From an uncultured Candidatus Saccharibacteria bacterium (GTDB taxonomy: Bacteria > Patescibacteriota > Minisyncoccia > UBA9983), in assembly GCA_964372755.1 (NCBI GenBank), contig CAYJQX010000001.1, positions 6,563 to 70,562 on the forward strand: a stretch of DNA of 64,000 bases, given 5' to 3'. The notes under the pieces are model-generated. The model ran no database searches. It was not told where the DNA came from and saw only the letters and a program-made list of their open reading frames with translations. The translations under genes were made by a program, and so were the position numbers. Below, piece after piece: positions 14,594 to 39,160 of the stretch (the first letter of the stretch is position 1; each line of letters begins with the position of its first letter).

Positions 14594-16978
14594 ATGCCTT
14601 TCCTTGCCTACATTTTTATGATTATCCCTCTTGCCGGATTAGCTTATACGGCTATTTATTTCTCTCATCGCCATTTGGAGAGAAAAAAATTACTGGAGAG
14701 TTTGAATTATGTCTTGTATGAAATAACCCTGCCGCAAGATAAATTAAAGGAAGGAGAAACATTCAAAGAAAGTGTGGCTTCAATGGCCAAACTCTATGTG
14801 GGACTCTCTGGCGAAAATACCCCGTTTTCTTTTGAAGTGGGATTGCCTGAAAAGGGGAGTGAAATAGTTTTTTTTGCCTCCGTATTGAAATCAAAAAGCG
14901 ACCTTTTTGAAAAACAACTGCAGGGCGTTTTTCCAAACGCGCAAACCAAGCTTAGAAAGGCCGACTACAATGTGTTTAAACCGGAAGGAGTGTCAGTGGC
15001 GACGGAGGCCACTCTCAAAGAACCTTATTTCTTACCTATAAAAACTTTTGACAAGTTTGAAGCCGATCCATTGACTCTGGTTTTAAACACTTTTTCTAAA
15101 ATAAAAAAAGAAGGTGAAGGCGCGGTCATTCAAGTTGTTTTAGCTCATGCCAACGAGTCAAAAATTAAACATATTCTCCATGCCGGAAATTCTATGAGGA
15201 ATGGCAAATCTTTCAAAAAGGCCATTAAAGGGGAAGAGACAATAATCTGGGCAGTTTTGAGAGGTTTTTGGCATCTTATCGCCGGATTTCCGAAGGAGCC
15301 AGAAAAACCAGAAAATACCGATTCCGTAAAGCTTAAATTACTGGAAGAAAAAGCTCTTTATCCTATTCTTGTGGCGAATATTCGTCTTATCGCCTCAGCC
15401 GAAAATGAGACAAGAGCCGAAGGAATTTTAAGCGAGTTGAAAAGCGCTTTCCAGCAATTTACAGATACCGCGGGAAACAGCTTGGTTTTTAAAAAACTTT
15501 CCTTTGTAGATACAAGAGATTTGTTCTTTAGATTTTCTTTCCGATTGCCGAATGATAAAAAGGCTATTTTTTTAAACGCTGGAGAAGTGGCCACAATTTT
15601 TCATATGCCAAAAGGCATTTTAGGAGCTTCTGCTCCACAGCTGAAATACACAAAAACCAGAGAATCGGCTCCGCCACTCAATCTTGCGAAAAATGGCGTT
15701 TTGCTCGGAGAAAATATCTACAGAGGAGAATCTTTGCCGGTGTATTTGTCCGATGATGACAGACGCAGGCATTTATATGTCATCGGTCAAACAGGCACAG
15801 GAAAATCTACGATGATAAAAAACATGGCGGTACAAGACATTGAAGCAGGCAAGGGTGTTTGTTTTATAGATCCGCATGGCTCCGATCTGCAGGATATTTT
15901 GGCTCGCGTGCCCGATAATCGCATAGAAGACGTTGTTTATTTCAATCCGAGCGACGTGGAACGGCCGATGGGGCTCAATATGCTGGAATACGATCCCCGT
16001 TATCCGGAACAAAAAACGTTTGTGGTCAACGAGCTTTTGGGGATTTTTAACAAACTTTTTGATATGAAAACGGCCGGAGGACCGATGTTTGAACAATATT
16101 TTAGGAATGCCACTCTTTTGGTTATGGATGATCCGGCTTCCGGAAACACTCTTTTTGAAATTTCTCGAGTTTTAAGCGATAAGACTTTTCGCGATTATAA
16201 ACTTTCTAAAACCACCAACCCGATCGCCCTTTCTTTTTGGAGAGATGTGGCGGAAAAAGCGGGAGGAGAAGGAGCGCTTCAAAACATTGTGCCTTATATC
16301 ACTTCCAAGTTTGATAATTTTCTCTCAAACGATATTATGCGTCCGATAATCGGGCAAGAAAGATCTTCCCTTAATTTTCGGGAAATAATGGATAGCCAGA
16401 AGATTTTACTGGTCAATCTCTCCAAAGGAAGATTGGGAGATTTAAACTCTTCGCTTTTGGGTCTAATTTTGGTGGGCAAACTTTTAATGGCTTCATTGTC
16501 GCGAGTGGATATGCCGGAGGCGGAGCGAAAAGATTTTTATCTATACATTGATGAATTTCAAAATGTTACCACCAATTCTATAGCCACTATTCTTTCGGAG
16601 GCAAGAAAATATCGTCTAGATCTCACCATCGCTCATCAATTTATCGGCCAACTGCAGGAAGATATCAAGAAAGCCGTTTTCGGCAATGTGGGTTCAATGG
16701 CTATTTTTCGTGTCGGCGCCGAGGATTCTGAGTTTTTGGAAAAACAACTCGCTCCTTTATACACGGCTCAAGACCTAATGAATATAGACAATTATAACGC
16801 TTATGTCAGGTTGCTTATTGCCGGAGAAACAGCCCGGCCTTTTAATATTATCGCGAGACCTTTTACCAAGGGAAGCGAGGAGGTCAAAGAAAAAGTTGCG
16901 GCCTTCTCTTCCTTAAAATATGGGAGGCCAAGGGATGAGATAGAGGCGGAGATAAGAAAGAAGTATTTACAAGATTAA
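14594..16978 (+). CDS. type IV secretion coupling-protein-like ATPase (VirD4/TraG/TrwB-like), N-terminal TM anchor
   Basis: N-terminal TM MPFLAYIFMIIPLAGLAYTAIYF. Walker A HLYVIGQTGTGKST, Walker B FYLYIDEFQNV, plus the downstream LTIAHQFIGQL and MAIFRVG blocks typical of the T4SS-DNA_transf/TraG family. Confidence 0.6.
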   Translation: MPFLAYIFMIIPLAGLAYTAIYFSHRHLERKKLLESLNYVLYEITLPQDKLKEGETFKESVASMAKLYVGLSGENTPFSFEVGLPEKGSEIVFFASVLKSKSDLFEKQLQGVFPNAQTKLRKADYNVFKPEGVSVATEATLKEPYFLPIKTFDKFEADPLTLVLNTFSKIKKEGEGAVIQVVLAHANESKIKHILHAGNSMRNGKSFKKAIKGEETIIWAVLRGFWHLIAGFPKEPEKPENTDSVKLKLLEEKALYPILVANIRLIASAENETRAEGILSELKSAFQQFTDTAGNSLVFKKLSFVDTRDLFFRFSFRLPNDKKAIFLNAGEVATIFHMPKGILGASAPQLKYTKTRESAPPLNLAKNGVLLGENIYRGESLPVYLSDDDRRRHLYVIGQTGTGKSTMIKNMAVQDIEAGKGVCFIDPHGSDLQDILARVPDNRIEDVVYFNPSDVERPMGLNMLEYDPRYPEQKTFVVNELLGIFNKLFDMKTAGGPMFEQYFRNATLLVMDDPASGNTLFEISRVLSDKTFRDYKLSKTTNPIALSFWRDVAEKAGGEGALQNIVPYITSKFDNFLSNDIMRPIIGQERSSLNFREIMDSQKILLVNLSKGRLGDLNSSLLGLILVGKLLMASLSRVDMPEAERKDFYLYIDEFQNVTTNSIATILSEARKYRLDLTIAHQFIGQLQEDIKKAVFGNVGSMAIFRVGAEDSEFLEKQLAPLYTAQDLMNIDNYNAYVRLLIAGETARPFNIIARPFTKGSEEVKEKVAAFSSLKYGRPRDEIEAEIRKKYLQD

Positions 16979-17042
16979 AATGACAACTTTTTATTGTTCT
17001 GGTATTATTAAGATATAATTTATTAATAGAAAAATAATTTTT

Positions 17043-17369
17043 ATGCCCCCAAAAACACAAACGCTTCAAAACGACATTGTTACGGCTCTCGGCCTTAACG
17101 ATTTGCCGGAGGAGACTCGTGACGAGCTCATTGCCAAAATGACGGAAGTAGTGATCAAAAGACTGCTTCTCAATATTTTTGAAAAATTATCGGAGGATTC
17201 GGTTGAGGAGTTCGGCAAGCTTCAGACTTCCGGAGATGCGGAAGCTATGGAAGCTTTCTTGAAGGAAAAAATAGAAGATTACGATGGACTAGTGCAGAAA
17301 ACGGTTTCCGATTTTATTACCGAGGTGAAAGGAACAATAGAGACATTAAAAAGTTCCATAAATTCTTAA
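17043..17369 (+). CDS. small acidic hypothetical protein
   Basis: 108 aa, helical and acidic. Sits immediately downstream of the VirD4-like gene. Confidence 0.4.
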   Translation: MPPKTQTLQNDIVTALGLNDLPEETRDELIAKMTEVVIKRLLLNIFEKLSEDSVEEFGKLQTSGDAEAMEAFLKEKIEDYDGLVQKTVSDFITEVKGTIETLKSSINS

Positions 17370-17378
17370 TGATAAAAC

Positions 17379-20009: not shown

Positions 20010-20012
20010 AGA

Positions 20013-20828
20013 ATGAAAGAAGTTGGGGGCGGACCGAAAAAAAAATTAGGTCAGAATTTTCTGACATCGGGCAAGATAGCGGGGGATATTGTATCCTCCG
20101 CTGGTCTTATTTCAAGCGATGTTGTTTTGGAAATCGGTCCGGGCAAGGGATTTTTGACGAAAGAAATTCTTAAAACCGGCGCGAAAATTATCGCTATTGA
20201 AAAAGATAAGGCGCTTGTGTCGATATTAAATTCACTTTTCGCCAGTGAAATTAAAAAAGGCTCTTTGGAGATTATCAGTGGAGATATTCGGGAATTTTTG
20301 AACAACAAGACCCGCGCTCCAAACCGCATTTTACTTACTACGCGCTACAAACTCATTGCTAATATTCCCTACTATCTCACTTCCTACCTCATCACTTCAT
20401 TTTTGAGGCTGTCTAATCCTCCGACAGAGATGATTTTGATGGTTCAAAAAGAAGTGGCGGAGAGGATTATCGCCAAAGACGGCAAAGAAAACCTTTTGTC
20501 TCTTTCAGTCAAATATTATGGCGAGCCGAAAATAGAGAGGCTGGTTAAAGCCGGAAGTTTTTTTCCAAAACCGAAAGTGGACTCCGCCGTTCTTTCCATA
20601 AAGAATATTCGCAAAGAAAATTCAAGGAGGTCAAAAACTTTTTTTAATTTAATAGAAAAAAGTTTTAACCAGAAAAGGAAAAAAATGTTTTCTGTTTTGA
20701 GTCAAAGCATAAAGAAAGAAACCCTTGCGAAAGCTTTTGAAAAGGGCGGTTTTAGCCAGAACATCCGCGCCGAAGATCTCTCGCTGGGTCAATGGAGGCT
20801 TTTGGCCGATTTTATCCCCATTGAATAA
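20013..20828 (+). CDS. rsmA: 16S rRNA (adenine1518/1519-N6)-dimethyltransferase
   Basis: KsgA signature LGQNFL, motif I LEIGPGKGFLT and NIPYYLTS. Confidence 0.85.
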   Translation: MKEVGGGPKKKLGQNFLTSGKIAGDIVSSAGLISSDVVLEIGPGKGFLTKEILKTGAKIIAIEKDKALVSILNSLFASEIKKGSLEIISGDIREFLNNKTRAPNRILLTTRYKLIANIPYYLTSYLITSFLRLSNPPTEMILMVQKEVAERIIAKDGKENLLSLSVKYYGEPKIERLVKAGSFFPKPKVDSAVLSIKNIRKENSRRSKTFFNLIEKSFNQKRKKMFSVLSQSIKKETLAKAFEKGGFSQNIRAEDLSLGQWRLLADFIPIE

Positions 20829-20889
20829 GTTTCTTTTGACGGAAAACAAGGCTGACGCGTGATACAATAATAAGCGGTATCAATATAAA

Positions 20890-21873: not shown

Positions 21874-21887
21874 TTTTTGATATTTAA

Positions 21888-23945
21888 ATGAAAATTTTCA
21901 GTAAAAAAATTATTTCCCTTTTTATCGTCTCCTCCATTTTTTTGCAGATGCTTTTGCCTGTTGTTGTTTTGGCGGTGGAAGATGGAGCAAGCTTGGGAGG
22001 AGGAGAAAGCTCGTCCGGTTCCGGAGGAGCTGGCAGTTTGATACCGGGGAATGGTTGCTTCAGCGGAAAGGGCATCATGGGGAGAATAAGAAGTTTTGGC
22101 GAAAGAGTTTTTGGGGGCAAAGAGAAAGAGCAGGGAGCCAAAAATGTTTCCGATTTAGAGTTTAATGTAAGCGAGCTTGAAGCGGCGGCTGAAGAAGAAA
22201 ATGCGGCCAATCTCATTAAAGAGCAGGCTTCTCTTGAGAGGTTTCAAAAAGTTTTTGGCGACAAATTGAAACTCGGCTCGGCGGCTTCCGCTGTTTCCGA
22301 TGCCACCGGAATTTCCGGTTCAAGCGCATCCAGCGCGGCCAAAAGGGGTTTAAGTAGCGCGACTGAATTCGGAGCCAAACTTATTCCTATCCCCGGCGCC
22401 GGGGATGCAATAAGGGGAGCTCTTGGCAAGATTCCCGGTATTGGTGCCGTCTTTGGCGGAGGTCCGCAAGAAACAAAAGAAGTGGACGGCCCTCTTCTTG
22501 ACGCCACCAAGAACCTTTATGAAGTCCAGAAGGAGATGCTAAAAAAACAGGAGGAGACAAGAAAAATTGTTCAGACGGAGTGCGTCAAAAGCCATATTTA
22601 TGATTCCATCGCGTGGTTTGTGGCCAAGCGCATCATCCATAGTTTTACCACTAGCATTGTCGGATGGATAAGCGGGGAAGGCAAATCCGATCCGAAATTT
22701 ATCGTCAATACTCCAGAGTTTTGGAAAGATGTGGCAAACGAAGCCTCCGGTTTGGTCATAGAAGAGTTGGGGGTGGGGGATCTTCTTTGCAAGCCTTTTA
22801 AATTTCAACTCCAGTTTGATTTGAAGTTTAGGCAAAAAAGATTGGATACGAGACTGAAATGTACGGCTGACGACGTGGTGGATAATTTCAGGGATAGTTT
22901 TTCCTACGGCGGGTGGGATAGCTGGCTGAAACTTACAGCCAATCCGCAAAATTATTATTCCGGCGCCTATCTTTCTTCTTTGGACGAAATAGCAAGAAGG
23001 AGACAGGAAGCCGTTGAGGCGGCAAAGACGGATCAGGAAGCGGGGGGAAATTTTATGGGAGTAAGAGTGTGTGTAAACCAAACAGCAAACGGTTTGTGCG
23101 CGCGCTGGGAAACTAGGACTCCCGGAAAAACGGTGAGCGATCTTTTATCCCGTGCTTTAGGGAGCGATATTGCCCAGCTTGAACTGGCCGATGAGTTTAA
23201 CGAAATTGCCGTCGCTTTGGTTAATCGAATGAGAGGCTGGATTGTAACAGGCGGAGGAGGAAACAAAGGACTCCTAAAATTTGACGGGAAAATAGAAGAG
23301 GTGGCTGATTCTTCGGGAACGGGAGGAGGCGGATCCGGACAAACAGGGGGAGGGAACACTTCTTCCGATAATCAAGTAGAGACAAAAAGAGCGGAAATTA
23401 TCTCTCGCTTGGATGCTTATCTTTCAAGAGAGATTGCCTACAGGGACGCAAAACAAAAAATCTTAGACTTTATTTTAGAGAACGAGGGAAGTTACACGGA
23501 CTTAAAATTATGTTATCAGGGACAATTTTTTGTTAATCGCCAGAAGTTTTCCGGTAAAACAAACCCGACAGAAGCTGAAAAGGCGGAATTTGAGAAGGAA
23601 GACGAAAGACTCTCTGGCCTCATTGCCGGAGTGGGCGCCACCACTACCTCAATCTTTGGTCCTCTTGCAAGCGGTGTTCAGACAGAAATAGACCGCTCGC
23701 AAGCAATCATTGATGAGTTTTTTGACGGCAAATCCATCGCCAGAAATGTCACTATACTTGAGGCTTTAAATAGCGTGGAGGCAAATTATTTAAGCGGAGA
23801 GGCGATTAGGAATGTTCATGATGGTCTGGACGTGAAAAACGCGGAAGACGAGCTGGAGAGTTTGAAGAAAACTTTGAGTGAGAAAAGCGTTGAAACAGAA
23901 TTTAACAAATGTTTGGCCGATCTGGAAATCTTAAACAAAAAATGA
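21888..23945 (+). CDS. secreted hypothetical protein (685 aa)
   Basis: Signal peptide MKIFSKKIISLFIVSSIFLQMLLPVVVLA and Gly/Ser-rich linkers. Its stop overlaps the start of the next gene (ATGA). Confidence 0.4.
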   Translation: MKIFSKKIISLFIVSSIFLQMLLPVVVLAVEDGASLGGGESSSGSGGAGSLIPGNGCFSGKGIMGRIRSFGERVFGGKEKEQGAKNVSDLEFNVSELEAAAEEENAANLIKEQASLERFQKVFGDKLKLGSAASAVSDATGISGSSASSAAKRGLSSATEFGAKLIPIPGAGDAIRGALGKIPGIGAVFGGGPQETKEVDGPLLDATKNLYEVQKEMLKKQEETRKIVQTECVKSHIYDSIAWFVAKRIIHSFTTSIVGWISGEGKSDPKFIVNTPEFWKDVANEASGLVIEELGVGDLLCKPFKFQLQFDLKFRQKRLDTRLKCTADDVVDNFRDSFSYGGWDSWLKLTANPQNYYSGAYLSSLDEIARRRQEAVEAAKTDQEAGGNFMGVRVCVNQTANGLCARWETRTPGKTVSDLLSRALGSDIAQLELADEFNEIAVALVNRMRGWIVTGGGGNKGLLKFDGKIEEVADSSGTGGGGSGQTGGGNTSSDNQVETKRAEIISRLDAYLSREIAYRDAKQKILDFILENEGSYTDLKLCYQGQFFVNRQKFSGKTNPTEAEKAEFEKEDERLSGLIAGVGATTTSIFGPLASGVQTEIDRSQAIIDEFFDGKSIARNVTILEALNSVEANYLSGEAIRNVHDGLDVKNAEDELESLKKTLSEKSVETEFNKCLADLEILNKK

Positions 23946-26224
23946 GAAGAAAAATTTTAAAATCCGACATTTTTGTTTTTACCGGTTTTTTTGTCCTGAT
24001 TTTATTTTTCTTTTACGGGCCGTTTTCGGCGCATACCACTTACGCAGCATTTGAATTTATTGATATTGGGGCAGGGGTTTTAAAAAAATTAGTTGCCGGC
24101 ATCGGCGGAATAGTCATCCATATCGCCTCTTGGTTTTTAGCCCTTTCGGGATGGATTTTTGATTACACGATACAATTTTCCATTCTTAATTATTTCGGCG
24201 AGGGCGGATTTGTAGAAAAAGGGTGGACGACGGTGAGAGATCTCTCCAATGTGGTTTTTATATTCATTCTTTTGTACGCGGCTTTCATGACTGTCTTGGG
24301 GATGGGCGGAGTGGATATTAAAAAAGTGGTGGCCAATGTGGTCTTGATTGCCCTACTGGTTAATTTCAGTTTGGTTATCACAAAGGTGGTCATAGACGCC
24401 AACAACATCTTGGCGGTGGAGTTTTACAACAAACTTAACAACATTGAGGATGCCAGCAACCCCGGAAAAAAACTCACTCTTTCTGAAGGAATATCAAATG
24501 CTCTAAGCCCGCAGAATTTTTTTAAGCAACCAGAAGACAATTCTTCGTTTTGGGGAGAAATATTTTCCCGCGGGGCAGAAGCTGACGAGGAATCAACCCT
24601 GATGCAGATAGCCATAAGCACCATTTTTGGCTCAATATTCATTTTGGCTCTGGCTTTCGTGCTTTTGGCCGGAGGGCTAATGTTTATTCTCCGCACCGCC
24701 GCTCTGTGGCTTGTTATGATTCTCTCTCCCGCCGCTTTTGTTTGCTACGCTGTTCCGGGAGCGGAAAAATTTTTCACCAAATGGAAAGGGCATTTGATCA
24801 ACCACGCCCTTTTTGCGCCGGCCTATATGTTTTATCTCTATGTGGTCGTCAAAATTGTTTCCGAGTCCAATCTTCTCTCTTCAACGGGCAGGGAAAACGT
24901 TCATTTGAGTGCGGACGCCAAAGACCTGGACACGGCCTCCATGGGTCTGATTTTCAAATACCTAATCGTTCTTTTTCTCCTCACAATGGCTTTAAAACTC
25001 GCGAGTGATATGGGCGCTTATGGCGCTTCGGCGGCCAATAAATATTTTGATAAAGGCAAGGGTTGGCTGACCGGTAAGGCGAAAAGAATCAGTCAAAAAG
25101 TTCCCGGAGGCGCCTCTAGAGTTTTGTTGAGCAACCAAAAAACAAGACAAGCTCTGCAGAGTTTTGCGGCCAGCAGTCCGAGGGTCGGGGGGGCTATTTC
25201 AAGAACAGTTCGCTCTGGCGCCAAGCTCGGCTTAAACGAAGAGCTTATCAAAGCGAGAGCAGAGACAGCGAAATCCCTGACACCGGAACAGCAAGCAAAA
25301 TATTTCGCAAAGCTTGGCAGAGTGCCTTTTGCCGGCCGTTTGCAAGGGGCAAGTTCTAATGTTCCAGGCCTTAAGCAAGCGGCTTTTGTCCTAAGTCCTG
25401 TTGCAGCAATTATGAATTTTCTTGGCGGGGATAACCAGTCTCAAAAGAGAATGCTTGAAGAAATGTCCTCAAGCCAGAGAAGAAAATTTGTTGCTGAAGC
25501 TGACAAGGATACTGGCGCCAGAGCGCTCGTTAATAAATATTTGTTGGAGAAAGAAATCTTGGACAAACTCTCTTCAGAGGAGAAAATGGAATTTTATGCC
25601 AGAGGAGAAAATGATCCCACTATTGCCAAGGATCCGAGCAATGTAGAGTTCAGAAAAGGAATGGAAAAGAAAATTCTTGAAAACACGGAAGAATTCCAGA
25701 AACTTTCTATCCGTGACAGGGTGGAATTTGGAAAAATGATCGATAAAATGGGTGGAGATGTTGCTTTATTCAATAAGGCTGTCGATAAAATGTCAAAAGA
25801 AGACAAAGAGAATTATACTAAAACAAAAAACGAGGTTGGCAGGAAGGAAAAAATCGGAGATTTTCTTCTTAAGACAGATCCCATTTCTGGTAATCCCATT
25901 TCTGTGCCGGATCTTTCGGATAAAAGCGTCTTGGGTCGTTTCAACAACATAAAACCGGATGAGATTCAAACTTTAAGAGACGATCTGTTTACAGACAGCA
26001 ACGTTGATTACATGTTGGATAATCTTAGAACCGAACATTTCAATAAAATCATGGCTCGTGGCGATGAATCTTCCGATAAATTTATTGAAAGAGTTATCGC
26101 TAAAGCCCCCGGAGCCAAAAGTCCGGATGATGTCAGCAAGGCTTGGAAAACAATTTCTCCGTCTGTATCCGCTTGGGCTATCAGTCCGGCCGGACGATAT
26201 GCGCTAGAATCAAGATTGCCATAA
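23942..26224 (+). CDS. polytopic membrane protein, VirB6/TrbL-like candidate
   Basis: ATG overlaps the upstream TGA (translational coupling). At least six hydrophobic helices in the N-terminal 400 aa, then a long hydrophilic C-terminal domain, which is the VirB6-type architecture. Confidence 0.45.
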   Translation: MRRKILKSDIFVFTGFFVLILFFFYGPFSAHTTYAAFEFIDIGAGVLKKLVAGIGGIVIHIASWFLALSGWIFDYTIQFSILNYFGEGGFVEKGWTTVRDLSNVVFIFILLYAAFMTVLGMGGVDIKKVVANVVLIALLVNFSLVITKVVIDANNILAVEFYNKLNNIEDASNPGKKLTLSEGISNALSPQNFFKQPEDNSSFWGEIFSRGAEADEESTLMQIAISTIFGSIFILALAFVLLAGGLMFILRTAALWLVMILSPAAFVCYAVPGAEKFFTKWKGHLINHALFAPAYMFYLYVVVKIVSESNLLSSTGRENVHLSADAKDLDTASMGLIFKYLIVLFLLTMALKLASDMGAYGASAANKYFDKGKGWLTGKAKRISQKVPGGASRVLLSNQKTRQALQSFAASSPRVGGAISRTVRSGAKLGLNEELIKARAETAKSLTPEQQAKYFAKLGRVPFAGRLQGASSNVPGLKQAAFVLSPVAAIMNFLGGDNQSQKRMLEEMSSSQRRKFVAEADKDTGARALVNKYLLEKEILDKLSSEEKMEFYARGENDPTIAKDPSNVEFRKGMEKKILENTEEFQKLSIRDRVEFGKMIDKMGGDVALFNKAVDKMSKEDKENYTKTKNEVGRKEKIGDFLLKTDPISGNPISVPDLSDKSVLGRFNNIKPDEIQTLRDDLFTDSNVDYMLDNLRTEHFNKIMARGDESSDKFIERVIAKAPGAKSPDDVSKAWKTISPSVSAWAISPAGRYALESRLP

Positions 26225-26254
26225 TAATATAGTAGAGAATAATTATTTTTAAAG

Positions 26255-27010
26255 ATGAAAAAACATTCTTTTGAAGACATAAAAAAAGCTTACGCTTCTT
26301 TGCCGGAAGATTTGATTGAAGCGGGGTCTTCTGTTCAAACCACAGAAGCTTTAAGGGACATAGGCAAAAAATATGGGCTGATGATGGATCAGGCCGGGGA
26401 AATGGCGAGCGAAGCCGGTTCCGTCATCCTCGGCCTTACGCCTGTCCAGGAATTTGTTCCCAATCTTCAGGAAAGACTTGGAGTTTCTAAAGACATTGCC
26501 ACAAAGATAGCGGAAGACATCAGCGCTCAAGTTTTTTCCAAAGTAAGGGAGTCGATGAAAAAGATTCATTCAACTCACGGCGGAGATCAAGCTCTTTTAG
26601 AGGTGAAAGAAAATGCTCCCGCGGAAAAAAAGGATGATGTGCTAAAACATTTGGATGAAGACGCGGAAATAGAAAAGGATTTGAAAACAATGGTTGTTTC
26701 CAAAAACACGGAAGAAGAAAAAAAGAGATTTCCTGTGAGTGATTTAATTAATGCTTCTTTAGGTCTGGAGAGCAGGGAAAGAGAAGAATCTTTTCCCATA
26801 AACGACCTTATTAATGCATCCCTTCCTCCAGAGAATTTGCCGATCAATGGCTCTTCGAATTTACCACGACAGGAAAAAACTTCATCTACGCCTGTCCCTA
26901 AACCTCCGGTAAAACCAGCCGTTCCTCAAATAACCAGAATGCCGAAAGAAGAAAAAACACTGAATGTTCCCCTAAAGACAAAAGATCCCTACAGAGAACC
27001 AATAAGTTAG
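26255..27010 (+). CDS. hypothetical protein with tandem FP(V/I)SDLINASL repeats
   Basis: RFPVSDLINASLGLESREREESFPINDLINASLPPE. Pro-rich C-terminus. Confidence 0.4.
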   Translation: MKKHSFEDIKKAYASLPEDLIEAGSSVQTTEALRDIGKKYGLMMDQAGEMASEAGSVILGLTPVQEFVPNLQERLGVSKDIATKIAEDISAQVFSKVRESMKKIHSTHGGDQALLEVKENAPAEKKDDVLKHLDEDAEIEKDLKTMVVSKNTEEEKKRFPVSDLINASLGLESREREESFPINDLINASLPPENLPINGSSNLPRQEKTSSTPVPKPPVKPAVPQITRMPKEEKTLNVPLKTKDPYREPIS

Positions 27011-27034
27011 AAATAACAACTAAATCTAAAAGCG

Positions 27035-27466
27035 ATGAAATTTCAAGTTCCGCAATTCATAGAAGTTGAGACAAAAATATTCGGGCCGCTGACTTTGAAG
27101 CAGTTTTTGTATTTAGCCGGAGGCGCCGGCGCTTCTATCGTGCTCTACAGTTTGCTCCCTTTCTTTTTGATGATTATTTTCGCTGCGCCGATTGTCGCCC
27201 TCGCCCTCGCCCTCGCTTTTTACAAGCTAAATAATCAGCCTTTTGTGAGGGTGCTTGAAAATGCCATTAAGTTTTATCTGTCAGGCAGGCTTTTTTTGTG
27301 GAAGAAGACGCCAAATGAGGACAATAAATCAGTTTCTGTTGATAAAGAAGGAATATTGAAAACTGCGGGAATACAAACAAGCGGAACAACAGGTTATGTG
27401 CCGAAATTAACGCAAAGCAAATTAAAAGATTTATCCTGGAGTTTGGATATTAATAAAGAAACATAA
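27035..27466 (+). CDS. PrgI-family (VirB3-like) small membrane protein of Gram-positive-type T4SS
   Basis: MKFQVPQFIEVETKIFGPLTLKQFLYLAGGAGASIVLYSL matches the PrgI family N-terminal consensus (K.P.D.E...IFG.LT.RQF.YL) followed by a TM hairpin. Confidence 0.6.
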   Translation: MKFQVPQFIEVETKIFGPLTLKQFLYLAGGAGASIVLYSLLPFFLMIIFAAPIVALALALAFYKLNNQPFVRVLENAIKFYLSGRLFLWKKTPNEDNKSVSVDKEGILKTAGIQTSGTTGYVPKLTQSKLKDLSWSLDINKET

Positions 27467-27468
27467 CT

Positions 27469-27602
27469 CGACTCCAATACGCGAATTGACTCGAATGACA
27501 CTAATAGTATTAAAGCCTAACTTCTTTCATCCGCGTCATTCGTGCGCATTATTCCCTCCTTTGCTAGGAAGCTACGGGCGGGCAAGCGTGTATTAGCGTC
27601 GG
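27469..27602 (+). repeat. MITE-like repeat copy 2 (with an internal insertion of about 35 nt)
   Basis: CGACTCCAATACGCGAATTGACTCGAATGACACTAATAGTATTAAAGCCTAACTTCTTTCATCCGCGTCATTCGTGCGCATTATTC ... CGTGTATTAGCGTCGG is collinear with copy 1 at 7163-7262. Confidence 0.55.
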
Positions 27603-27608
27603 GTAAAA

Positions 27609-27624
27609 TGTTATAATTAAATCG
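27609..27624 (+). promoter_or_regulatory. extended -10 TGTTATAAT positioned 7 nt before the ATG (leaderless-type promoter)
   Basis: TGTTATAAT taaatcg ATG. The same layout recurs at many genes in this window. Confidence 0.45.
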
Positions 27625-28284
27625 ATGGCTATAAGTTCACAAGCAACACAAGTATTTGTTCCCATAAAAGAAATTCGTGAAGGAGTGGTTATTTTAAAAG
27701 ACGAATCGTTCAGAATGATTTTAATGTGCTCCACTCTGAATTTTGCTCTTAAATCTGAAGACGAGCAGAGCGCCATTGTCATGCAATATCAAAATTTTTT
27801 AAACTCCCTTGATTTTTCGGTGCAATTTTTTATCCAGTCGAGAAAATTAAACATTAATCCATACCTTACTACCCTTGAAGAGGCAAGAGTTCAACAGCCG
27901 AACGAGCTTTTGAAAATCCAAACAAAAGAATACATAGATTTTATTAGAAATTTTGTTACAACGACCAATATAGTGGAGAAAACTTTTTATGTGGTTGTGC
28001 CTTATGCTTCCTCCATTGCCATGCCCACAAAATCTTCGAACCCCATAAGCGGAATTCTTTCTATTTTTTCTCGGAACAAAGATAATCTGGGGCAGGCTGA
28101 GGCAATGCGTTTTGCCGAAGCAAGACTGCAAATTCAGCAAAGAGCAGACGTGGTTTCTCAAGGCTTGGCTGGAGCCGGCATTCGTTCCAAACAGCTTGGA
28201 ACGGAGGAGTTGATCGAGCTCTATTACAAACTTTTCAATCCGGGCGAGCTGGAAAAAGAATCTCTTAAAAGCATAAAATCATAA
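27625..28284 (+). CDS. virB4: VirB4/TrbE/CagE-family T4SS ATPase, N-terminal domain fragment
   Basis: VFVPIKEIREGVVILKDESFRMILMCSTLNFALKSEDEQSAIVMQYQNFLNSLDFSVQFFIQSRKLNINPYL matches the conserved VirB4 N-terminal domain. It ends with TAA one nt before the next ATG. Confidence 0.65.
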   Translation: MAISSQATQVFVPIKEIREGVVILKDESFRMILMCSTLNFALKSEDEQSAIVMQYQNFLNSLDFSVQFFIQSRKLNINPYLTTLEEARVQQPNELLKIQTKEYIDFIRNFVTTTNIVEKTFYVVVPYASSIAMPTKSSNPISGILSIFSRNKDNLGQAEAMRFAEARLQIQQRADVVSQGLAGAGIRSKQLGTEELIELYYKLFNPGELEKESLKSIKS

Positions 28285-28285
28285 C

Positions 28286-30154
28286 ATGAGCATATTAGAT
28301 TCCTTAAAAAATAATTCTGTCACCCCAGCTCCTCAGACGCCGCAACCTTCTTTGCAAAATCCTTCTGTGGCAAGCGGAGAAATATTGCCGGTCATACCTC
28401 AAAATATTTATGAATATGGCGTTTTAAAATTGCAGGACGTTATTGCTCCGTCGGCCCTGGAAGTAGCTTCAAACCACATAAAAATCGGCGAGAAGGTAGC
28501 AAGGGTGATTTTTGCCATGTCTTATCCGAGATTTTTATCATCGGATTGGTTTTCTCCGATAGTTAATCTCGATAAAGTTTTTGATGTTTCTATTTTTGTT
28601 CATCCGATAGATACCGCTTCAGTTTTGCATCAAATGCAGAGAAGGGTGGCGGAAGTGCAATCTCAAATTAACGAGAGAGAATCCAAAGGATTGGTGCGCG
28701 ACCCGATGCTCGATACCGCTTATCAAGATCTGGAGAATTTACGCGATGACCTCCAACAGGCCACTGAAAAATTATTTAATCTAGGGCTTTATGTTACGGT
28801 TTATGCCGACTCACTGGACGAATTGGATAAAATAGAAACGGAAGTGCGCCAGATTATGGAATCCAAGCTTATTTATGTAAAACCGGCTCTTTTCCAACAG
28901 CTTGACGGGCTCTACACGGTCTTTCCTTTTGAGACGGATAAATTGGACATTCATAATCAGATGAATTCGTCTCCTCTCTCTTCTCTTTTTCCTTTTGTCT
29001 CTTTTGATCTTTCTTCCGACAGAGGAATTCTTTATGGAGTAAACAGACACAATAACGGCCTTGTTCTTTTTGATCGATATTCTCTGGAAAATTACAACTC
29101 GGTAGTTTTTGCCAAGTCTGGTTCGGGAAAATCTTACGCGACCAAATTGGAAATTTTGCGTACCCTTATGTTTGATACGGACGTGATCGTGATAGATCCG
29201 GAGAGGGAATATGAATATCTGGCGGAATCGGTAGACGGACAATATTTCAGCATCTCTCTTTCATCCAAACATCATATTAATCCTTTTGATCTGCCTCCTG
29301 TGGGCGAAGGAGAATCCCCCTCGGATGTTTTGAGAAGCAACATCATTTCCCTCGTGGGACTCTTTCGTTTGATGTTGGGCGGTCTTACGCCGGAGGAAGA
29401 CTCTGTTATTGACAGAGCGATTACCGAAACTTACGCTTCTCGCGATATCACGCCGGACACGGATTTTTCTACTCTTCCTCCACCGACTTTGTCGGACTTA
29501 GAAATTATTTTAGCCAGTATGGAGGGAGCGGAGTCTTTGGCCCAGCGCTTGGCCAAGTTTACTCGCGGGACTTGGGCCGGCTTTATCAACCAGCCGACCA
29601 ATGTTGACGTGAACCGAAAGTTTGTCGTTTTTTCCGTTCGCGACATGGAAGACGAGCTTCGTCCGATCGCGATGTATATAGTTATGCACTATATCTGGAA
29701 CATGGTCAGGAAAAATATCAGGAAAAGACTTTTGGTGGTGGATGAGGCTTGGTGGATGATGAAATCCGAAGACACGGCTTCTTTTCTTTTTGGCATCGCC
29801 AAACGAGGCAGAAAATATTTTTTGGGATTGCTCACTATCACTCAAAACGTGGAAGACTTTTTAAGTTCTCCTTACGGAGTGCCAATCATAACAAACTCTT
29901 CTATGCAGTTGCTGTTGAAGCAATCGCCTGCTTCCATAGAGATAGTGAAAAAGACTTTCAATCTTACAGAGGAGGAGAAATTTCTGCTTTTGGAATCAGA
30001 CGTGGGGGAGGGTATCTTTTTTGCGGGAGCCAAACATGTGGCCATAAAAGTCATTGCTTCATATACAGAAGATCAGATTATTACTTCCGATCCGGCCCAG
30101 CTTTTGGCCATAAAAAAAGCGCGAGAGGAAATTGGCAACCCCGTTACCGCTTGA
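28286..30154 (+). CDS. virB4: VirB4/TrbE/CagE-family T4SS ATPase, central and C-terminal ATPase domain
   Basis: Walker A VVFAKSGSGKSYAT and Walker B RLLVVDEAWWMM. The LTITQNVEDF motif is typical of VirB4. Confidence 0.75.
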   Translation: MSILDSLKNNSVTPAPQTPQPSLQNPSVASGEILPVIPQNIYEYGVLKLQDVIAPSALEVASNHIKIGEKVARVIFAMSYPRFLSSDWFSPIVNLDKVFDVSIFVHPIDTASVLHQMQRRVAEVQSQINERESKGLVRDPMLDTAYQDLENLRDDLQQATEKLFNLGLYVTVYADSLDELDKIETEVRQIMESKLIYVKPALFQQLDGLYTVFPFETDKLDIHNQMNSSPLSSLFPFVSFDLSSDRGILYGVNRHNNGLVLFDRYSLENYNSVVFAKSGSGKSYATKLEILRTLMFDTDVIVIDPEREYEYLAESVDGQYFSISLSSKHHINPFDLPPVGEGESPSDVLRSNIISLVGLFRLMLGGLTPEEDSVIDRAITETYASRDITPDTDFSTLPPPTLSDLEIILASMEGAESLAQRLAKFTRGTWAGFINQPTNVDVNRKFVVFSVRDMEDELRPIAMYIVMHYIWNMVRKNIRKRLLVVDEAWWMMKSEDTASFLFGIAKRGRKYFLGLLTITQNVEDFLSSPYGVPIITNSSMQLLLKQSPASIEIVKKTFNLTEEEKFLLLESDVGEGIFFAGAKHVAIKVIASYTEDQIITSDPAQLLAIKKAREEIGNPVTA

Positions 30155-30198
30155 TTGAGATAAGGGATTAGAGGATTTGTTTTAAGTTTTTTAAAAAA

Positions 30199-30744
30199 AT
30201 GGCCGTTACACGTTATTCAGAAGAAGAGTTGCTGGAGGAAGAGAGGCGAACCACCTTGGAGAAAGCTCGTATGGAGGAAGATTCAGAAGAAGAGTCAGAG
30301 GAAGAAGAAACCTCTCGCCCTATGTATTCAGACAGAGAAGAAGAAAATGAAGAAAAAAAAGAGCCGAGAATTTCTACTTTCACGGCAATCCTGATGCTTG
30401 TTTTTGTTTCAACCGTAGAACTTGCGCAGTTCGGCCTTACCTTTCTTGTTGTGGGAGTCGTGGTGAGCCCGATAATCGCTTTCTGCGCGCAAATGATTGT
30501 GACTTTTTGGTTTTGGATGAAAGGCGTCAGCTTCAGGAGCGCTAAAAAAATTATCACAATCGGGGTTTCCATGCTCATAGAATTTATTCCCGGTTTGGAT
30601 GTCTTGCCAGGATTCTTGCTTCAAGTTATTGCTATTATATTAATGACAAAAGCCGAAGATGGCGCGCTGGGTAAAATTGCCTCGACAGTGCCAGGCGGAA
30701 AAAAATTAACGGAAGCCGTCGAGAAGACCTTGAAGAAAGCTTAA
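30199..30744 (+). CDS. small membrane protein with highly acidic N-terminal region (possible pilin/VirB2-like subunit, speculative)
   Basis: EEELLEEERR...DSEEESEEEETS is followed by two or three TM helices (AILMLVFVSTVELAQFGLTFLVVGVVVSPIIAF, ITIGVSMLIEFIPGLDVLPGFLLQVIAIILM). Confidence 0.4.
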   Translation: MAVTRYSEEELLEEERRTTLEKARMEEDSEEESEEEETSRPMYSDREEENEEKKEPRISTFTAILMLVFVSTVELAQFGLTFLVVGVVVSPIIAFCAQMIVTFWFWMKGVSFRSAKKIITIGVSMLIEFIPGLDVLPGFLLQVIAIILMTKAEDGALGKIASTVPGGKKLTEAVEKTLKKA

Positions 30745-30747
30745 AAA

Positions 30748-31731
30748 ATGAAGAAAAATTTTTATCTGATACTAACATTGATAATTATCTTTACGGCGAC
30801 CTTTTTAGCGCCAAGATTTTTTGTTTTAGCCTTCGGAGATGATTTATCTCTTTCAGTTTTTCCGGAAAATCCCGAGGCCGGAGAGGAAATAAAAATCACC
30901 GCTTCAGGTTTTACTTTCAATGTAGATGATTCCGATTTTATTTGGGCGATAAACGGCAAGGTGGCGCTCAAGGGACGCGGAGAAAAGTCTTTGACTTTCA
31001 CAAATGGCGAAGCTGGCAAGGTAACGGAAGTCGTTGTAACGGTAATAGGAGAAAACGGGGAAAGTGTGGTAAGGAAAATCTCCTTTGCTCCGCAAGATCT
31101 GGATATTTTATGGGAAGCCGAAACCTACACTCCTCCTTTTTACAGGGGGAAAGCTCTGCCGAGCTCTGAAGCCTATATCACCTTTTTTGCCCTGCCACAT
31201 TTTTTTGTGAGCGGAAAAAAACTCGCGCCAACGGAACTTACTTACACTTGGAAAATCAACAACAAAATTCTAAGCGATTTTTCAGGGCTGGGGAAAACCA
31301 GTATCCGCATAAAAGGCCCGGAACTTTTTTCCAAGATGGAGGTGGAAGTTGCCGTTTCAAACAGGACCGGCTCCACATCGCAAAATAAAAAATTGACCAT
31401 AGAACCTATTTTTCCGGAACTTATTTTTTATCGCGAGGATGCTCTGGAGGGGACAAATTATGCCAAAGTTTTGGAAAATCCGGCTAAATTTGGCGAAGGA
31501 GAAGTTGGGGTAAGGGTCGAGCCGTATTTCTTTTCTCTTTCAGAGATTAATTTTCTTGATTACGCGTGGAGAGTGAACGGATTTTTATCAAAGCAATACG
31601 AGAAATCCAGAGTGGTTGTTTTCAGAAACAGAGAAGGCCAGGAGAAGGGGCGAGTAAGTGTCTCCCTTGAAGTGCAGAATCAAAAAAATGTGGGGCAAAT
31701 TAGTAAAGCCAGCGCCATGTTAGAATTTTAG
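30748..31731 (+). CDS. secreted hypothetical protein
   Basis: Signal peptide MKKNFYLILTLIIIFTATFLAPRFFVLA. Beta-rich. Confidence 0.4.
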   Translation: MKKNFYLILTLIIIFTATFLAPRFFVLAFGDDLSLSVFPENPEAGEEIKITASGFTFNVDDSDFIWAINGKVALKGRGEKSLTFTNGEAGKVTEVVVTVIGENGESVVRKISFAPQDLDILWEAETYTPPFYRGKALPSSEAYITFFALPHFFVSGKKLAPTELTYTWKINNKILSDFSGLGKTSIRIKGPELFSKMEVEVAVSNRTGSTSQNKKLTIEPIFPELIFYREDALEGTNYAKVLENPAKFGEGEVGVRVEPYFFSLSEINFLDYAWRVNGFLSKQYEKSRVVVFRNREGQEKGRVSVSLEVQNQKNVGQISKASAMLEF

Positions 31732-31734
31732 AAT

Positions 31735-32754
31735 ATGAAAAAGATAGCGTATATTTTTCTTTTTATTTTTATATTTTTTCCGACAGCTTTGTTGGCTGTG
31801 GATTTTATAGATCCGAATTCATCCAATCCTTGCGGGGGAGGCGGTATAACGGAAGATATCCAGAGAGGCAACGAATTCAGGCCGTGTCTTTTGGCTCCTT
31901 TGCCGACAGGGGCGGCCAATGAAGCAAGCCCCACCTTCACCGAGTATCTTACTTTTGTTTACAGGTTTTTGATTGCTGGGACGGCTTTGGTTGCCACCGG
32001 CCAGATAGTTTACGCGGGAATTTTGCGTATTTGGGGCGGAGTGAGCCAGTCAAGTATCACCAAATCAAGAGAGATCATAGAACGATCTCTCTGGGGTCTT
32101 GGCCTTGCTCTATCTTCTTACTTAATTCTCTACACCATCAATCCCAGTCTGGCGGAGATTAAACTGGAAATTCCGCCGATAGTATGGAAGGTGCAGAAGT
32201 TTGAGCCGGTTGAAAAGGGTCCCACCCAAGGTTCTGTTCTAAGTGGCGAAAATATTTCCTCTTCAGAGGAGGCAACAAGAAAATATATACTCAGTAAAGG
32301 TGTAACTATTGTGAGTTCTGGAAATAATTCTGGTGTTGTGGATGCCTGTCCTGATGGGGAAAAATTCTTTGATTATAAAGAAAGAACAGGCAGGAGTTGT
32401 ACCTCAGTAAGAGGTTTAGCTACAAGTACCATAGACAAGATTGGTAATTTAAAAAAGGATTGTAATTGCTCCGTTGCTATTAGTGGAGGGACTGAAGAAG
32501 GACATCAAACTCATGGCCCGAATCATCCAAGTACCTTAGATCTGGAAAAGGGTTTGAATTTTGATAATTTAGAAAAATATATTAAGGAAAATTCTAGTGC
32601 TATTTGCACCAAAAAAATCAAGAAAAAAATAAAACAAGAAGATGGAACAGAGAAGGAAGTAGAAGTGGAAATTAAATCATACGTAACAGATGGTATTAAG
32701 TTTACGGATGAAGATAACCACTGGCACGTGCTGGTCGGAGGTAGATGTTATTAA
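31735..32754 (+). CDS. secreted/membrane hypothetical protein with Cys-rich C-terminal domain
   Basis: Signal peptide plus two hydrophobic helices (FLIAGTALVATGQIVYAGIL, LGLALSSYLILYTI), reminiscent of VirB2/TrbC pilin topology. The C-terminal domain has 8 Cys. Confidence 0.4.
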   Translation: MKKIAYIFLFIFIFFPTALLAVDFIDPNSSNPCGGGGITEDIQRGNEFRPCLLAPLPTGAANEASPTFTEYLTFVYRFLIAGTALVATGQIVYAGILRIWGGVSQSSITKSREIIERSLWGLGLALSSYLILYTINPSLAEIKLEIPPIVWKVQKFEPVEKGPTQGSVLSGENISSSEEATRKYILSKGVTIVSSGNNSGVVDACPDGEKFFDYKERTGRSCTSVRGLATSTIDKIGNLKKDCNCSVAISGGTEEGHQTHGPNHPSTLDLEKGLNFDNLEKYIKENSSAICTKKIKKKIKQEDGTEKEVEVEIKSYVTDGIKFTDEDNHWHVLVGGRCY

Positions 32755-32757
32755 TTT

Positions 32758-34002
32758 ATGTCAAAAAGAAAAATTATCATTTTAGTCCTGGCTGTAATTT
32801 TGATCGGTTTTTCCGCTTATTCCTATTTCTTTTTTGAAAAAAAAGATCTCAACAATAATACTGGAAATGATAACAGAGAGGGAACCTTAGAAAACCTTTT
32901 TCCTTCTTCTGGAGATGCGGAAAATGAAAAACAAAACGAGGGTGGAGTTTCTAGAGAAGAAAGTCAGCTTCCACAAGAAGGTTCAGAAAATAGAGAGGAA
33001 ATATTTGGTCAGGAGATAGAGGCGCCAAAGCAATTAACTATCAATCCAATCTCTGGTTATACCATTGTTTCCACAACTTCGGTCCGTTATGTAGAGACTT
33101 CAACGGGTCATATTTATGAAGTTGATTTTTCCGGAGAAAACTACAATAGATTATCTAATACTACTATTCTAAAAACAGAAGAGTCTTATTGGTCGCCCAA
33201 AGGAGACAAGGTTATCATTAGATATTTAAACGGCGTAAATGACTCTATGATTTTAAAAAATTATTCAGCTGTTTTGCCAAAATCGGCCTCTTCCACCGAG
33301 CTTACGGGATCATTCTTTAATGACTTTAAGGAAATAGCAGTTTCTTCTTCGGAGGAAAGTGTCGCTCTTCTCCAAAAAAATAGCGCAAAATACGATTTAA
33401 TTTTAACTAGCTTTGAGAATACCAAAAGAAAACTTCTTGCCAGTTTCCCCATAGGCCAGTTCAATATCTCTTGGGCCGGTAAAAATACTTTGTCTCTTTT
33501 AACAAAACCAACGAGGGGAATACAAGGAATCTTTTATGGGCTAGACATTAAAACAGGCTCACTAAGAAAAATAGTAGAAGGAAATTCCGGTTTGACGGCC
33601 AAACTTTCGCCGCTCAACAACTTTGTTTTTTATTCAGAAACTGACAAAACCGGAAAAGTCATAGGATATTTTTATGATGTTAAGAAAAACCAAAGACTTA
33701 TCCTTGGCACCAACACTTTTGCGGATAAATGTATCTGGAGCAACAAAACAGAGGGAATTATTTATTGCGCGGTTCCAAAGGAATATTCTTCCGGTGTTTA
33801 TCCGGATGATTGGTATAAAGGAGTAAAGAGTACGGAAGACAAACTATGGCTAGTAGATGCGCAAACAGGAGAGGTTCAAATTTTAAGTGAAAATATGGGC
33901 GGAAATATTGATGCCGTGGATTTGAAATTTACCTCTGACGAGAGTTATTTTTTCTACACAAACAAAAAAGATGGCACTCTATGGACGGTGAAAATAAGAT
34001 AA
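32758..34002 (+). CDS. membrane-anchored hypothetical protein, beta-propeller-like
   Basis: N-terminal TM anchor. Repeated Trp/Tyr-containing beta strands, TolB/WD40-like. Confidence 0.4.
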   Translation: MSKRKIIILVLAVILIGFSAYSYFFFEKKDLNNNTGNDNREGTLENLFPSSGDAENEKQNEGGVSREESQLPQEGSENREEIFGQEIEAPKQLTINPISGYTIVSTTSVRYVETSTGHIYEVDFSGENYNRLSNTTILKTEESYWSPKGDKVIIRYLNGVNDSMILKNYSAVLPKSASSTELTGSFFNDFKEIAVSSSEESVALLQKNSAKYDLILTSFENTKRKLLASFPIGQFNISWAGKNTLSLLTKPTRGIQGIFYGLDIKTGSLRKIVEGNSGLTAKLSPLNNFVFYSETDKTGKVIGYFYDVKKNQRLILGTNTFADKCIWSNKTEGIIYCAVPKEYSSGVYPDDWYKGVKSTEDKLWLVDAQTGEVQILSENMGGNIDAVDLKFTSDESYFFYTNKKDGTLWTVKIR

Positions 34003-39150: not shown

Positions 39151-39160
39151 TAGGTAGTAT

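Follow-up and report, generated by a model that had tools for sequence, protein, structure and literature searches.

A conserved chromosomal type IV secretion gene cluster of Patescibacteria and its accessory proteins

The ultrasmall, host-dependent Patescibacteria account for a sizeable fraction of bacterial diversity and grow on other cells, and their type IV secretion system (T4SS) is among the few machines that have been shown to be essential for the epibiotic lifestyle. The VirB4 ATPases of these bacteria were placed by Quinonero-Coronel et al. (2025) in a monophyletic Patescibacteria clade that is related to the monoderm MPF-FATA type, and TrsD, PrgI/VirB3, VirB6 as well as VirB2-like proteins turned out to be widespread near virB4, with VirB8 mostly undetected (PMC12102498). 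The systems are chromosomal, with KsgA abundant near virB4 and DnaA/DnaN, RnpA and RpmH also present; relaxases are rare and seldom linked, occurring near virB4 in only 15 cases, and the count for type IV coupling protein (T4CP) homologues near virB4 was only 148/5,713 in Patescibacteria (PMC12102498). The same survey notes that TrsD is a separate protein in pGO1, and allows that very different relaxases may remain to be found (PMC12102498). In Southlakia epibionticum, the T4SS genes SEML1_0004-0011 and the pilin genes 0014-0019 were shown by Wang et al. (2023) to be essential for epibiotic growth, and the cluster includes no recognisable coupling protein or relaxase (PMC10633639). A t4cp homologue elsewhere in the Southlakia genome is non-essential (PMC12102498), and comEC is dispensable for growth according to the summary of the 2023 work in a later paper (PMC10633639 as summarised in PMC12857230). 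We here describe a related locus in a 64,000-nucleotide (nt) stretch of the genome of an uncultured Candidatus Saccharibacteria bacterium (GCA_964372755.1, contig CAYJQX010000001.1, positions 6,563 to 70,562; hereafter the window, with positions counted from its first letter).

With a probability of about 0.8, positions 20013-34002 of the window are a chromosomal T4SS cluster of Patescibacteria (candidate phyla radiation; Parcubacteria/Paceibacteria-like) that derives from the monoderm MPF-FATA type and no longer has its DNA-processing functions. As a locus it is both real and conserved, and it is a further example of the kind of Patescibacteria T4SS described in 2023-2025, not a new machine. 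A preliminary description, made from the letters of this DNA, had read it as a non-conjugative chromosomal T4SS, which was right; the novelty that it implied did not hold, because systems of this kind had been described by then, including their location on the chromosome without a relaxase, the pairing of TrsD with VirB4 and the VirB2-like pilins.

The 14.6-34.0 kb part of the window contains 16 open reading frames (ORFs), all on the + strand and tightly spaced with gaps of 1-64 nt, except for 158 nt ahead of 27625 and an overlap at 23909/23942-23945 (Table 1). Within the cluster itself the other gaps measure 1-61 nt, an operon-like arrangement. At least 593 relatives of the VirB4 ORF were present in species-representative genomes, and we retained the best 80 loci, nearly all of them metagenome-assembled genomes, whose best tblastn segment has 67-79% identity. 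These loci are mostly labelled as Patescibacteria, Parcubacteria, Paceibacterota or their candidate phyla (Kaiser-, Zambryski-, Nomura-, Taylor-, Campbell-, Wolfe- and Terrybacteria), or with the generic name 'Saccharibacteria', and the remainder only as 'bacterium' or 'uncultured bacterium'. By these labels, the window belongs to a Patescibacteria genome of the Parcubacteria/Paceibacteria type. We compared the window proteins by tblastn with these 80 virB4-centred loci, and the counts in relatives given below use as denominators the loci with enough flank. The genes from 20013 to 34002 were found in a conserved order on one strand, namely rsmA, TSP3, 685-aa, VirB6-like, 251-aa, PrgI, TrsD, VirB4, 3-TM, Ig-like, VirB2-like and propeller (aa, amino acids; TM, transmembrane; Ig, immunoglobulin), and from 20890 to 34002 both order and strand are kept in 40-80 related genomes at 20-50% protein identity. 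This synteny is far above chance. Gene calls made independently, with labels from Pfam, gave an identical string in GCA_035438625.1, where it ends beside an opposite-strand gene with a YidC-type PF02096 (60KD_IMP) match. The gene-order check in relatives thus identified the previously unannotated ORFs of 20890-34002 as syntenic partners of virB4, and not as random neighbours. The housekeeping gene rsmA, which had been noticed inside the string and was confirmed by PF00398, sits at the left edge of the cluster, with its position and strand kept in 41/52 relatives and also in the related locus L162.

The VirB4 protein has 622 aa, with the Walker A motif AKSGSGKS and the Walker B motif VVDEAW seen intact in the translation, and it passed the profile hidden Markov model (HMM) check, scoring 387 bits against a cutoff of 325 with NCBIfam NF045971 (conju_CD1110) over profile positions 185-734 of 752. 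Furthermore, it matched Pfam P-loop_TraG with 90.6 bits, the C-terminal domain of Thermoanaerobacter VirB4 (PDB 4AG5) with E=1e-45, and, in part, TIGR00929 VirB4_CagE with 121 bits. The preliminary description had merged 27625-30154 into a single VirB4 gene, which proved to be two ORFs in different frames, a TrsD-like ORF and the ATPase. The TrsD-like ORF encodes 219 aa and ends with TAA, followed by one base and then the ATG at 28286; its product scored 30.8 bits with PF11130 (TraC_F_IV) and covers the N-terminal part of the NF045971 profile. The same split was found in 79/79 relatives, in which the TrsD ORF has 209-289 aa and mostly 209-230, and in the locus L162 the gene carries a PF26593 TraC-like label in the independent gene calls. 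The split is no frameshift error, and 27625-28284 is TrsD as described for pGO1 and widespread in Patescibacteria. The PrgI/VirB3-like assignment also passed its HMM check, with 47.2 bits for PF12666 against a gathering score of 27, and the gene is present in 76/76 relatives.

The 158-nt gap ahead of the trsD-like gene contains one copy of a repeat, TTYMATYCGCGTCATTCGTGCGYATTATTC followed by CGTGTATTAGCGTCGG, which occurs at 27525-27602, 34729-34773 and 7226-7248, in each case on the + strand in intergenic sequence or at gene ends. In the copy at 27525-27602 a 32-nt insert separates the two halves, the copy at 34729-34773 lies between the ppa-like and nusA-like genes downstream of the cluster, and the 7.2-kb copy is imperfect. 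No copies are expected by chance, and the repeat was not found in 161 fetched loci. A TATAAT box is located 6 nt 5' of the ATG at 27625. A structured RNA in this gap was considered and rejected, as the RNA fold was no better than those of shuffled sequences, and Rfam at the gathering threshold gave only a transfer-messenger RNA (tmRNA) and tRNAs in the window.

We also examined the candidate pilin. The two-TM VirB2-like protein with a Cys-rich domain that had been proposed at 31735-32754 was borne out at family level: PF18895 (T4SS_pilin) matched 32/35 orthologues and TrbC/VirB2 (PF04956) matched 5/35, and the module has a TINP motif and two TM segments besides its signal peptide. The gene was detected by tblastn in 38/70 loci, the sequence being too divergent in many, while most loci have it by position and with unchanged topology. 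In 26/35 orthologues the module is extended at its C-terminus by at least 100 aa, and in single orthologues the extension is a YkuD, VanY, SLT, SLT_2 or SLT_3 domain. In the window protein, the C-terminal domain carries the motif CxVxITGGTE..H..H.PG..DL...HWHV, which is common to most of 8 aligned orthologues. A LAS/VanY-type peptidase was considered for this domain on the basis of the H..D and HWH motif and of the VanY match of one orthologue, and was not supported: the PDB profile search gave chance matches only, hhalign against the VanY-bearing orthologue gave a probability of 0.3%, and Pfam at E<=5 gave one CDI_toxin_EC869_like match in one member only. Fusions of the pilin module to cell-wall enzymes and other domains are common in this lineage, and one may ask if such 'pilins' form a pilus in the first place. 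The fused modules might polymerise, or might just anchor wall-remodelling domains.

The VirB6-like gene is present in 58/60 relatives, and its product has about 8 hydrophobic segments, after which about 400 aa form a hydrophilic extension at the C-terminus. The preliminary claim of a VirB6-like polytopic protein has some backing in the topology and in the orthologues, but the window protein itself has no Pfam match, its sole match being to NF046089 (E=0.0031). Among 32 orthologues, the commonest NCBIfam families were the CD3337/EF1877 mobilome membrane protein (NF046089; 6/32, best 5.9e-6), the Mbov_0396 TM protein of integrative conjugative elements (ICEs; 3/32) and the MMCAP2_0566 conjugal transfer protein (2/32), all three being membrane proteins of monoderm conjugative elements; Pfam TrbL/VirB6 matched 1/32. 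The hhalign comparison with PrgH of pCF10 was weak (probability 6.6%), and the profile retrieved from the PDB sequences only low-complexity and coiled-coil matches, which came from the C-terminal extension. Judged from these family matches, a VirB6 identity of 23909-26224 is likely, not proven.

If the VirB6-like gene starts instead at 23942, its start codon overlaps, as ATGA, the stop codon of the upstream gene for the 685-aa secreted protein. The latter gene is present in 43/56 relatives, and the conserved core of its product spans about 250 aa (window residues ~225-470) with the motif VNWINSGF..P.FV...GGW..W...PQNNPYGAYL...TPG...ADEFNEI. No match was found in Pfam, NCBIfam or PDB. The orthologues end in varied tails, including F5/8-type-C (discoidin), Ig-like, CHB_HEX_C and Fn3_assoc domains, and a surface-exposed, host-facing role would fit such interchangeable tails of discoidin, Ig-like and carbohydrate-binding type. 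A single orthologue matched DUF4141. No VirB5-like or otherwise recognisable fold emerged: all Foldseek matches were to generic coiled coils, and none had E<=0.001.

Five further proteins belong to the cluster. The Asp-rich, Ca-binding-like loops noticed in 20890-21873 are TSP3 repeats, and the PDB profile search with this protein matched only Ca-binding repeats (Bap, lanmodulin); the gene is present in 40/52 relatives. The 251-aa protein, which has no Pfam or PDB match, was found by sequence in 42/69 relatives. The end of this family (26984-27010) carries a DPYRE motif in which D244, P245, Y246 and E248 are near-invariant, preceded by a poorly conserved Pro/Lys-rich linker, and the motif may be a short docking motif. 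For the small 3-TM protein, at least 50/75 loci have an orthologue by position and tblastn detected 13/77, many being too divergent, with FD..Q..IP..G...F.WF..GV...K....E.IP...LP.WT as the shared motif. It has no Pfam family. The preliminary description had read a pilin-like topology in it; by hhalign it shows no likeness to the pilin module, and second pilin, PrgF and PrgG were all negative as candidates in that comparison. The Ig-like protein is present in 75/75 relatives and gave weak PKD matches, and among PDB entries its profile best matched phage T4 Hoc, in the Ig-like domains (E=0.002), along with other Ig folds. It was also considered as a VirB8/PrgL counterpart and rejected, showing no similarity to PrgL. 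The last gene, present in 67/67 relatives, encodes a protein with a TM helix at 3-30, a disordered linker at 32-85 and a propeller at 90-414. AlphaFold2 on 63 sequences modelled it with a predicted local distance difference test (pLDDT) score of 88.6, in agreement with the beta-propeller suggested from the sequence, and Foldseek against the PDB retrieved generic WD40/TolB-like propellers only. What is new here is modest: six conserved accessory families without assignment, the TSP3 protein with its repeat-family match only, and the pilin-enzyme fusions in orthologues.

Table 1. Features of the locus and its borders in the window.
Feature	Position	Strand	Basis or remark
127-aa ORF, upstream partner of the VirD4-like gene	14079..14462	+	45/74 loci; no Pfam family
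VirD4/T4CP-like ATPase, N-terminal TM segment	14594..16978	+	marginal Pfam T4CP matches
DUF5663 protein	17043..17369	+	PF18908, 30.4 bits; no TM segment; lineage-specific
876-aa protein, one internal Gly-rich TM segment	17379..20009	+	lineage-specific, 1/68 related loci
rsmA/ksgA, 16S rRNA dimethyltransferase	20013..20828	+	PF00398, 161.8 bits
Signal-anchored protein, TSP3-type Ca-binding repeats and unassigned domain of ~220 aa	20890..21873	+	PF18884, 48 bits
685-aa secreted protein	21888..23945	+	conserved core and C-terminal helical hairpin; overlaps the VirB6-like gene
VirB6-like polytopic membrane protein (likely)	23909..26224	+	~8 hydrophobic segments; orthologue family matches
251-aa protein	26255..27010	+	conserved N-terminal domain, C-terminal DPYRE motif; no TM segment
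PrgI/VirB3-like membrane protein	27035..27466	+	PF12666
TrsD-like protein (VirB4 N-domain as own ORF)	27625..28284	+	PF11130; NF045971 positions 6-119
VirB4 ATPase, CD1110/MPF-FATA type	28286..30154	+	NF045971, P-loop_TraG, PDB 4AG5
Small 3-TM membrane protein, acidic N-terminus	30199..30744	+	directly 3' of virB4
Signal-anchored protein, three tandem Ig-like repeats	30748..31731	+	PDB profile matches to Ig folds
VirB2-like pilin with Cys/His-rich C-terminal domain of ~200 aa	31735..32754	+	orthologue PF18895 matches
Membrane-anchored 7-bladed beta-propeller	32758..34002	+	AlphaFold2 model
Terminator-like hairpin	34031..34051	+	3' of the last gene; consensus match only

The left third of the string behaved differently. 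The VirD4-like protein has the Walker A motif GQTGTGKS and the Walker B motif YIDEF, and just passed three Pfam T4CP models, T4SS-DNA_transf (22.1 bits against a gathering score of 20.1, residues 375-690), TraG-D_C (22.4/22) and TrwB_AAD_bind (21.6/20.5). The NCBIfam TraD/CD1115 matches are limited to about 60-80 residues round the P-loop, with 35-42 bits against cutoffs of 250-366, and the best PDB matches, TrwB (E=5.5e-5) and DotL (E=3.3e-4), cover the P-loop region only. We collected 80 metagenome loci centred on the relatives of this gene, and found rsmA downstream in 0/46 loci and any cluster gene in 0/27-41. The usual neighbours are housekeeping genes, whose translations by eye resemble rplO, secY, adk and map on the upstream side and ndk on the downstream side. 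The coupling-ATPase assignment of the preliminary description thus passed only marginally, and the gene is unlinked to the cluster in relatives, and its inclusion of 14594-20009 in the system fails on these counts. The lack of linkage agrees with the 148/5,713 of the survey (PMC12102498). The position of the VirD4-like ATPase in the window is not conserved, and the protein may or may not serve the T4SS machine; its location with a partner among housekeeping genes, away from T4SS genes, suggests a role of their own for the pair. This partner, the 127-aa ORF, was found by tblastn just 5' of the VirD4-like gene in the relatives counted in Table 1. In many relatives the VirD4-like ORF is extended upstream (median 914 aa), and the two genes may be fused there.

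The DUF5663 ORF lies beside the VirD4-like gene in only 4/72 loci. The 876-aa protein has no Pfam or NCBIfam family, so that the LysM-like motif read in 17379-20009 was not detected by either, and the membership of this protein in the system is unproven; it was compared with an 882-aa protein two genes upstream of rsmA in L162 as a possible orthologue, with no similarity found. Since the genes of the left part are unlinked in relatives, we take the conserved system to extend from 20013 (or 20890) to 34002. The ORFs of the preliminary description are otherwise all present on the + strand where it had placed them, save the merged VirB4, but two of those to which it gave signal peptides or TM helices, 17043-17369 and 26255-27010, encode no TM segment.

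The cluster shares with the Patescibacteria systems of the survey the VirB4 type, the separate TrsD and PrgI ahead of it, the upstream VirB6-like gene, the PF18895 pilin, the chromosomal location, the nearby ksgA and the absence of a detected relaxase. It differs in that the propeller, 3-TM and 685-aa core families are conserved here, whereas the survey leaves genes without family homology uncharacterised, and in that a T4CP-like gene lies within 10 genes of virB4. As in Southlakia, where SEML1_0005 encodes one, an exported Ig-like protein is encoded downstream of virB4; in contrast to the array of 6 short pilins of that organism, one pilin-like gene with a ~200-aa C-terminal domain is present here, and the lysozyme gene SEML1_0006 has no recognisable counterpart. 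With the monoderm MPF-FATA systems (pCF10 prgF-prgL, pGO1/pIP501 trs/tra and C. difficile CTn CD1110), the locus has in common the VirB4 family NF045971, the lack of outer-membrane core components and, for pCF10, the local order VirB6-like, PrgI, VirB4, which is that of prgH-prgI-prgJ. Unlike these systems, it has no relaxase, linked coupling protein, PrgK-type hydrolase or LPXTG adhesin, and no detected PrgL/PrgD VirB8-like protein, while it has a VirB2-like pilin, which the Gram-positive systems lack, and is chromosomal and apparently vertically inherited. Homologues or analogues of VirB2, VirB3, VirB4 and VirB6 are shared with the diderm VirB/D4 systems (Agrobacterium VirB, R388 Trw), but the VirB7/9/10 outer-membrane complex and VirB11 are absent here. 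In the virB operon, virB5 is located upstream of virB6. The secreted-protein gene directly 5' of the VirB6-like gene holds the same place, which is a positional analogy only, as VirB5 homology was not found.

On the architecture of T4SSs, hexamers of VirB4 would dock on the VirB6-like channel with TrsD and PrgI as membrane adaptors, and VirB4 could energise the assembly of a pilin-based conduit. The Ig-like, propeller and Ca-binding proteins may build or stabilise the part that spans the envelope, with the 685-aa protein, which is predicted to be translationally coupled to VirB6, as a candidate distal or host-binding component, and the domains appended to the pilin might locally open the cell wall in a VirB1-like manner. 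The machine would most likely mediate contact-dependent transfer of macromolecules between epibiont and host, and a role of the cluster in conjugation or in ComEC-dependent DNA uptake is unlikely. The locus provides a clean Paceibacteria-type parts list, in which seven conserved accessory genes are candidates for the extracellular part of the machine. The accessory families and the pilin-enzyme fusions merit structural follow-up, and would be no surprise to a specialist.

Several points weigh against this explanation of 20013-34002. The VirB6 assignment consists of weak family-level matches, with none from the PDB profile search. In the AlphaFold2 model of the 685-aa protein the core has pLDDT <50, with the C-terminal helices at 75-90; this failure is ascribed to the few usable homologues (9 in the alignment). 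The window copy of the pilin aligns across the whole module but is itself below threshold (not E<=0.01), and its Cys/His-rich C-terminal domain was given no assignment by PDB, Pfam or hhalign and no hydrolase family. A VirB8-like component was not found in sequence tests, with no such PDB match for the Ig-like, 251-aa and TSP3 profiles. The essentiality data come from another class, Saccharimonadia, than the lineage of this locus, and the roles of the accessory proteins are deduced from topology, position and domain type alone.

Other readings of the locus were weighed against this one. That the unannotated ORFs are merely unrelated neighbours of virB4 and form no system is extremely improbable: it is true of the left part, where the VirD4-like, DUF5663 and 876-aa ORFs are unlinked in relatives, and it is refuted for 20890-34002 by the order and strand kept across the related genomes. 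An ICE or its remnant, with the VirD4-like protein as the coupling protein and an unrecognised relaxase, is very unlikely. The VirB4 family is indeed typical of Firmicutes conjugative elements, a T4CP-like ATPase lies 10 genes upstream of VirB4 and a PIF1-type helicase with a helix-turn-helix (HTH) domain further upstream, and the survey leaves room for very different relaxases (PMC12102498). However, no relaxase, integrase or partition family was found by the HMM scan of the ORFs at 8.1-52.6 kb or by eye at 52.6-64 kb (1-8 kb lying outside the scan), as had been noted before, nor were convincing att-like or long flanking direct repeats, and the GC content across the locus (0.37-0.46) is the same as in the flanks. 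The rsmA context of the cluster is identical in dozens of species, which indicates vertical inheritance, and the VirD4-like gene in relatives stands amid housekeeping genes.

The ComB system of Helicobacter is a T4SS that imports DNA, and a ComB-like uptake system that cooperates with ComEC and the type IV pilus genes nearby appears quite unlikely for the cluster. The preliminary description had offered DNA uptake as one reading, beside a cell-cell contact machine, and its pilB-pilC at 44078-47052 and comEC were confirmed 10-19 kb downstream, the latter at 51059-53480. These organisms generally lack nucleotide synthesis according to the literature, and the archaeal Ced system imports DNA, with the CedB model partially matching VirB4 here; the CedB matches are limited to the ATPase core. 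Housekeeping genes on both strands, ppa-like and nusA-like (by eye) as well as TIM, PGK and RecJ, separate the cluster from pilB/pilC and comEC, which argues that the T4SS cluster and the pilus and competence genes are separate units. Furthermore, natural transformation in Southlakia depends on the type IV pilus and ComEC, and as comEC is reported in summary to be dispensable for growth there while the T4SS is essential, a ComEC-linked uptake role is disfavoured (PMC10633639 via PMC12857230). A conduit that imports host cytoplasmic material such as RNA, in which a T4SS-derived tube would pass through the envelope of the host and nourish the parasite, is doubtful but fits a preprint that describes tubes, perhaps T4SS pili, which extend from a Patescibacteria parasite in culture to its host, together with host RNA uptake and a monophyletic VirB4 in the phylum (bioRxiv 10.64898/2026.06.21.733656). 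In keeping with it, the locus encodes a pilin module and extracellular accessory proteins that are conserved, but the preprint itself leaves the uptake mechanism open, the genes give no direction of transport, and the conduit would be a special case of the contact-dependent transfer proposed above, with the same anatomy. In a more specific and rather unlikely form, the conserved accessory set would constitute a lineage-specific, host-penetrating extension of the T4SS that imports host macromolecules, for example RNA, as secretion in reverse. This set would comprise the 685-aa protein with interchangeable lectin/Ig tails, the 3-TM, triple-Ig, tethered-propeller and Ca-binding proteins, and the pilin with enzymatic or Cys/His-rich domains; if this is true, they would be new subunits without counterpart in known T4SSs.

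Downstream of the cluster, the next genes are on the opposite strand and encode, by eye, an inorganic pyrophosphatase-like (ppa-like) and a NusA-like protein. The number of terminator-like sites in the region, including the hairpin behind the last gene, is not above chance. No paralogues of the cluster families were found elsewhere in the window, and no replication origin is visible in it, the cumulative GC skew climbing steadily over the window. The genes for PilB (414 bits) and PilC follow those for a histidine kinase and a response regulator, and TIM, PGK and RecJ lie between pilB/pilC and comEC. Directly upstream of the kinase and regulator, four consecutive + strand ORFs of 397-470 aa without a Pfam family occupy 36521-42582 (36521, 37828, 39280 and 41389), and are possibly part of the type IV pilus locus. 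ComEC is encoded by two overlapping ORFs, one with DUF4131 and Competence domains (51059-52627) and one that is metallo-beta-lactamase-like by eye (52617-53480), which may reflect either a frameshift or a genuine split.

Finally, a helicase of the PIF1/RecD type, which has HTH_40 as its C-terminal domain and no relaxase domain, is encoded at 8099-9814, 5 kb upstream of the VirD4-like gene. At the other end of the window (58157-62547, read by eye), the tmRNA at 58157-58519 is followed by a small GIY-YIG-like ORF (58595-58966), and an FtsH-like ORF is followed by a 221-aa ORF with a LAGLIDADG-like motif (61792-62457) beside a tRNA; the GIY-YIG-like and LAGLIDADG-like ORFs could be selfish genes of the homing-endonuclease type.

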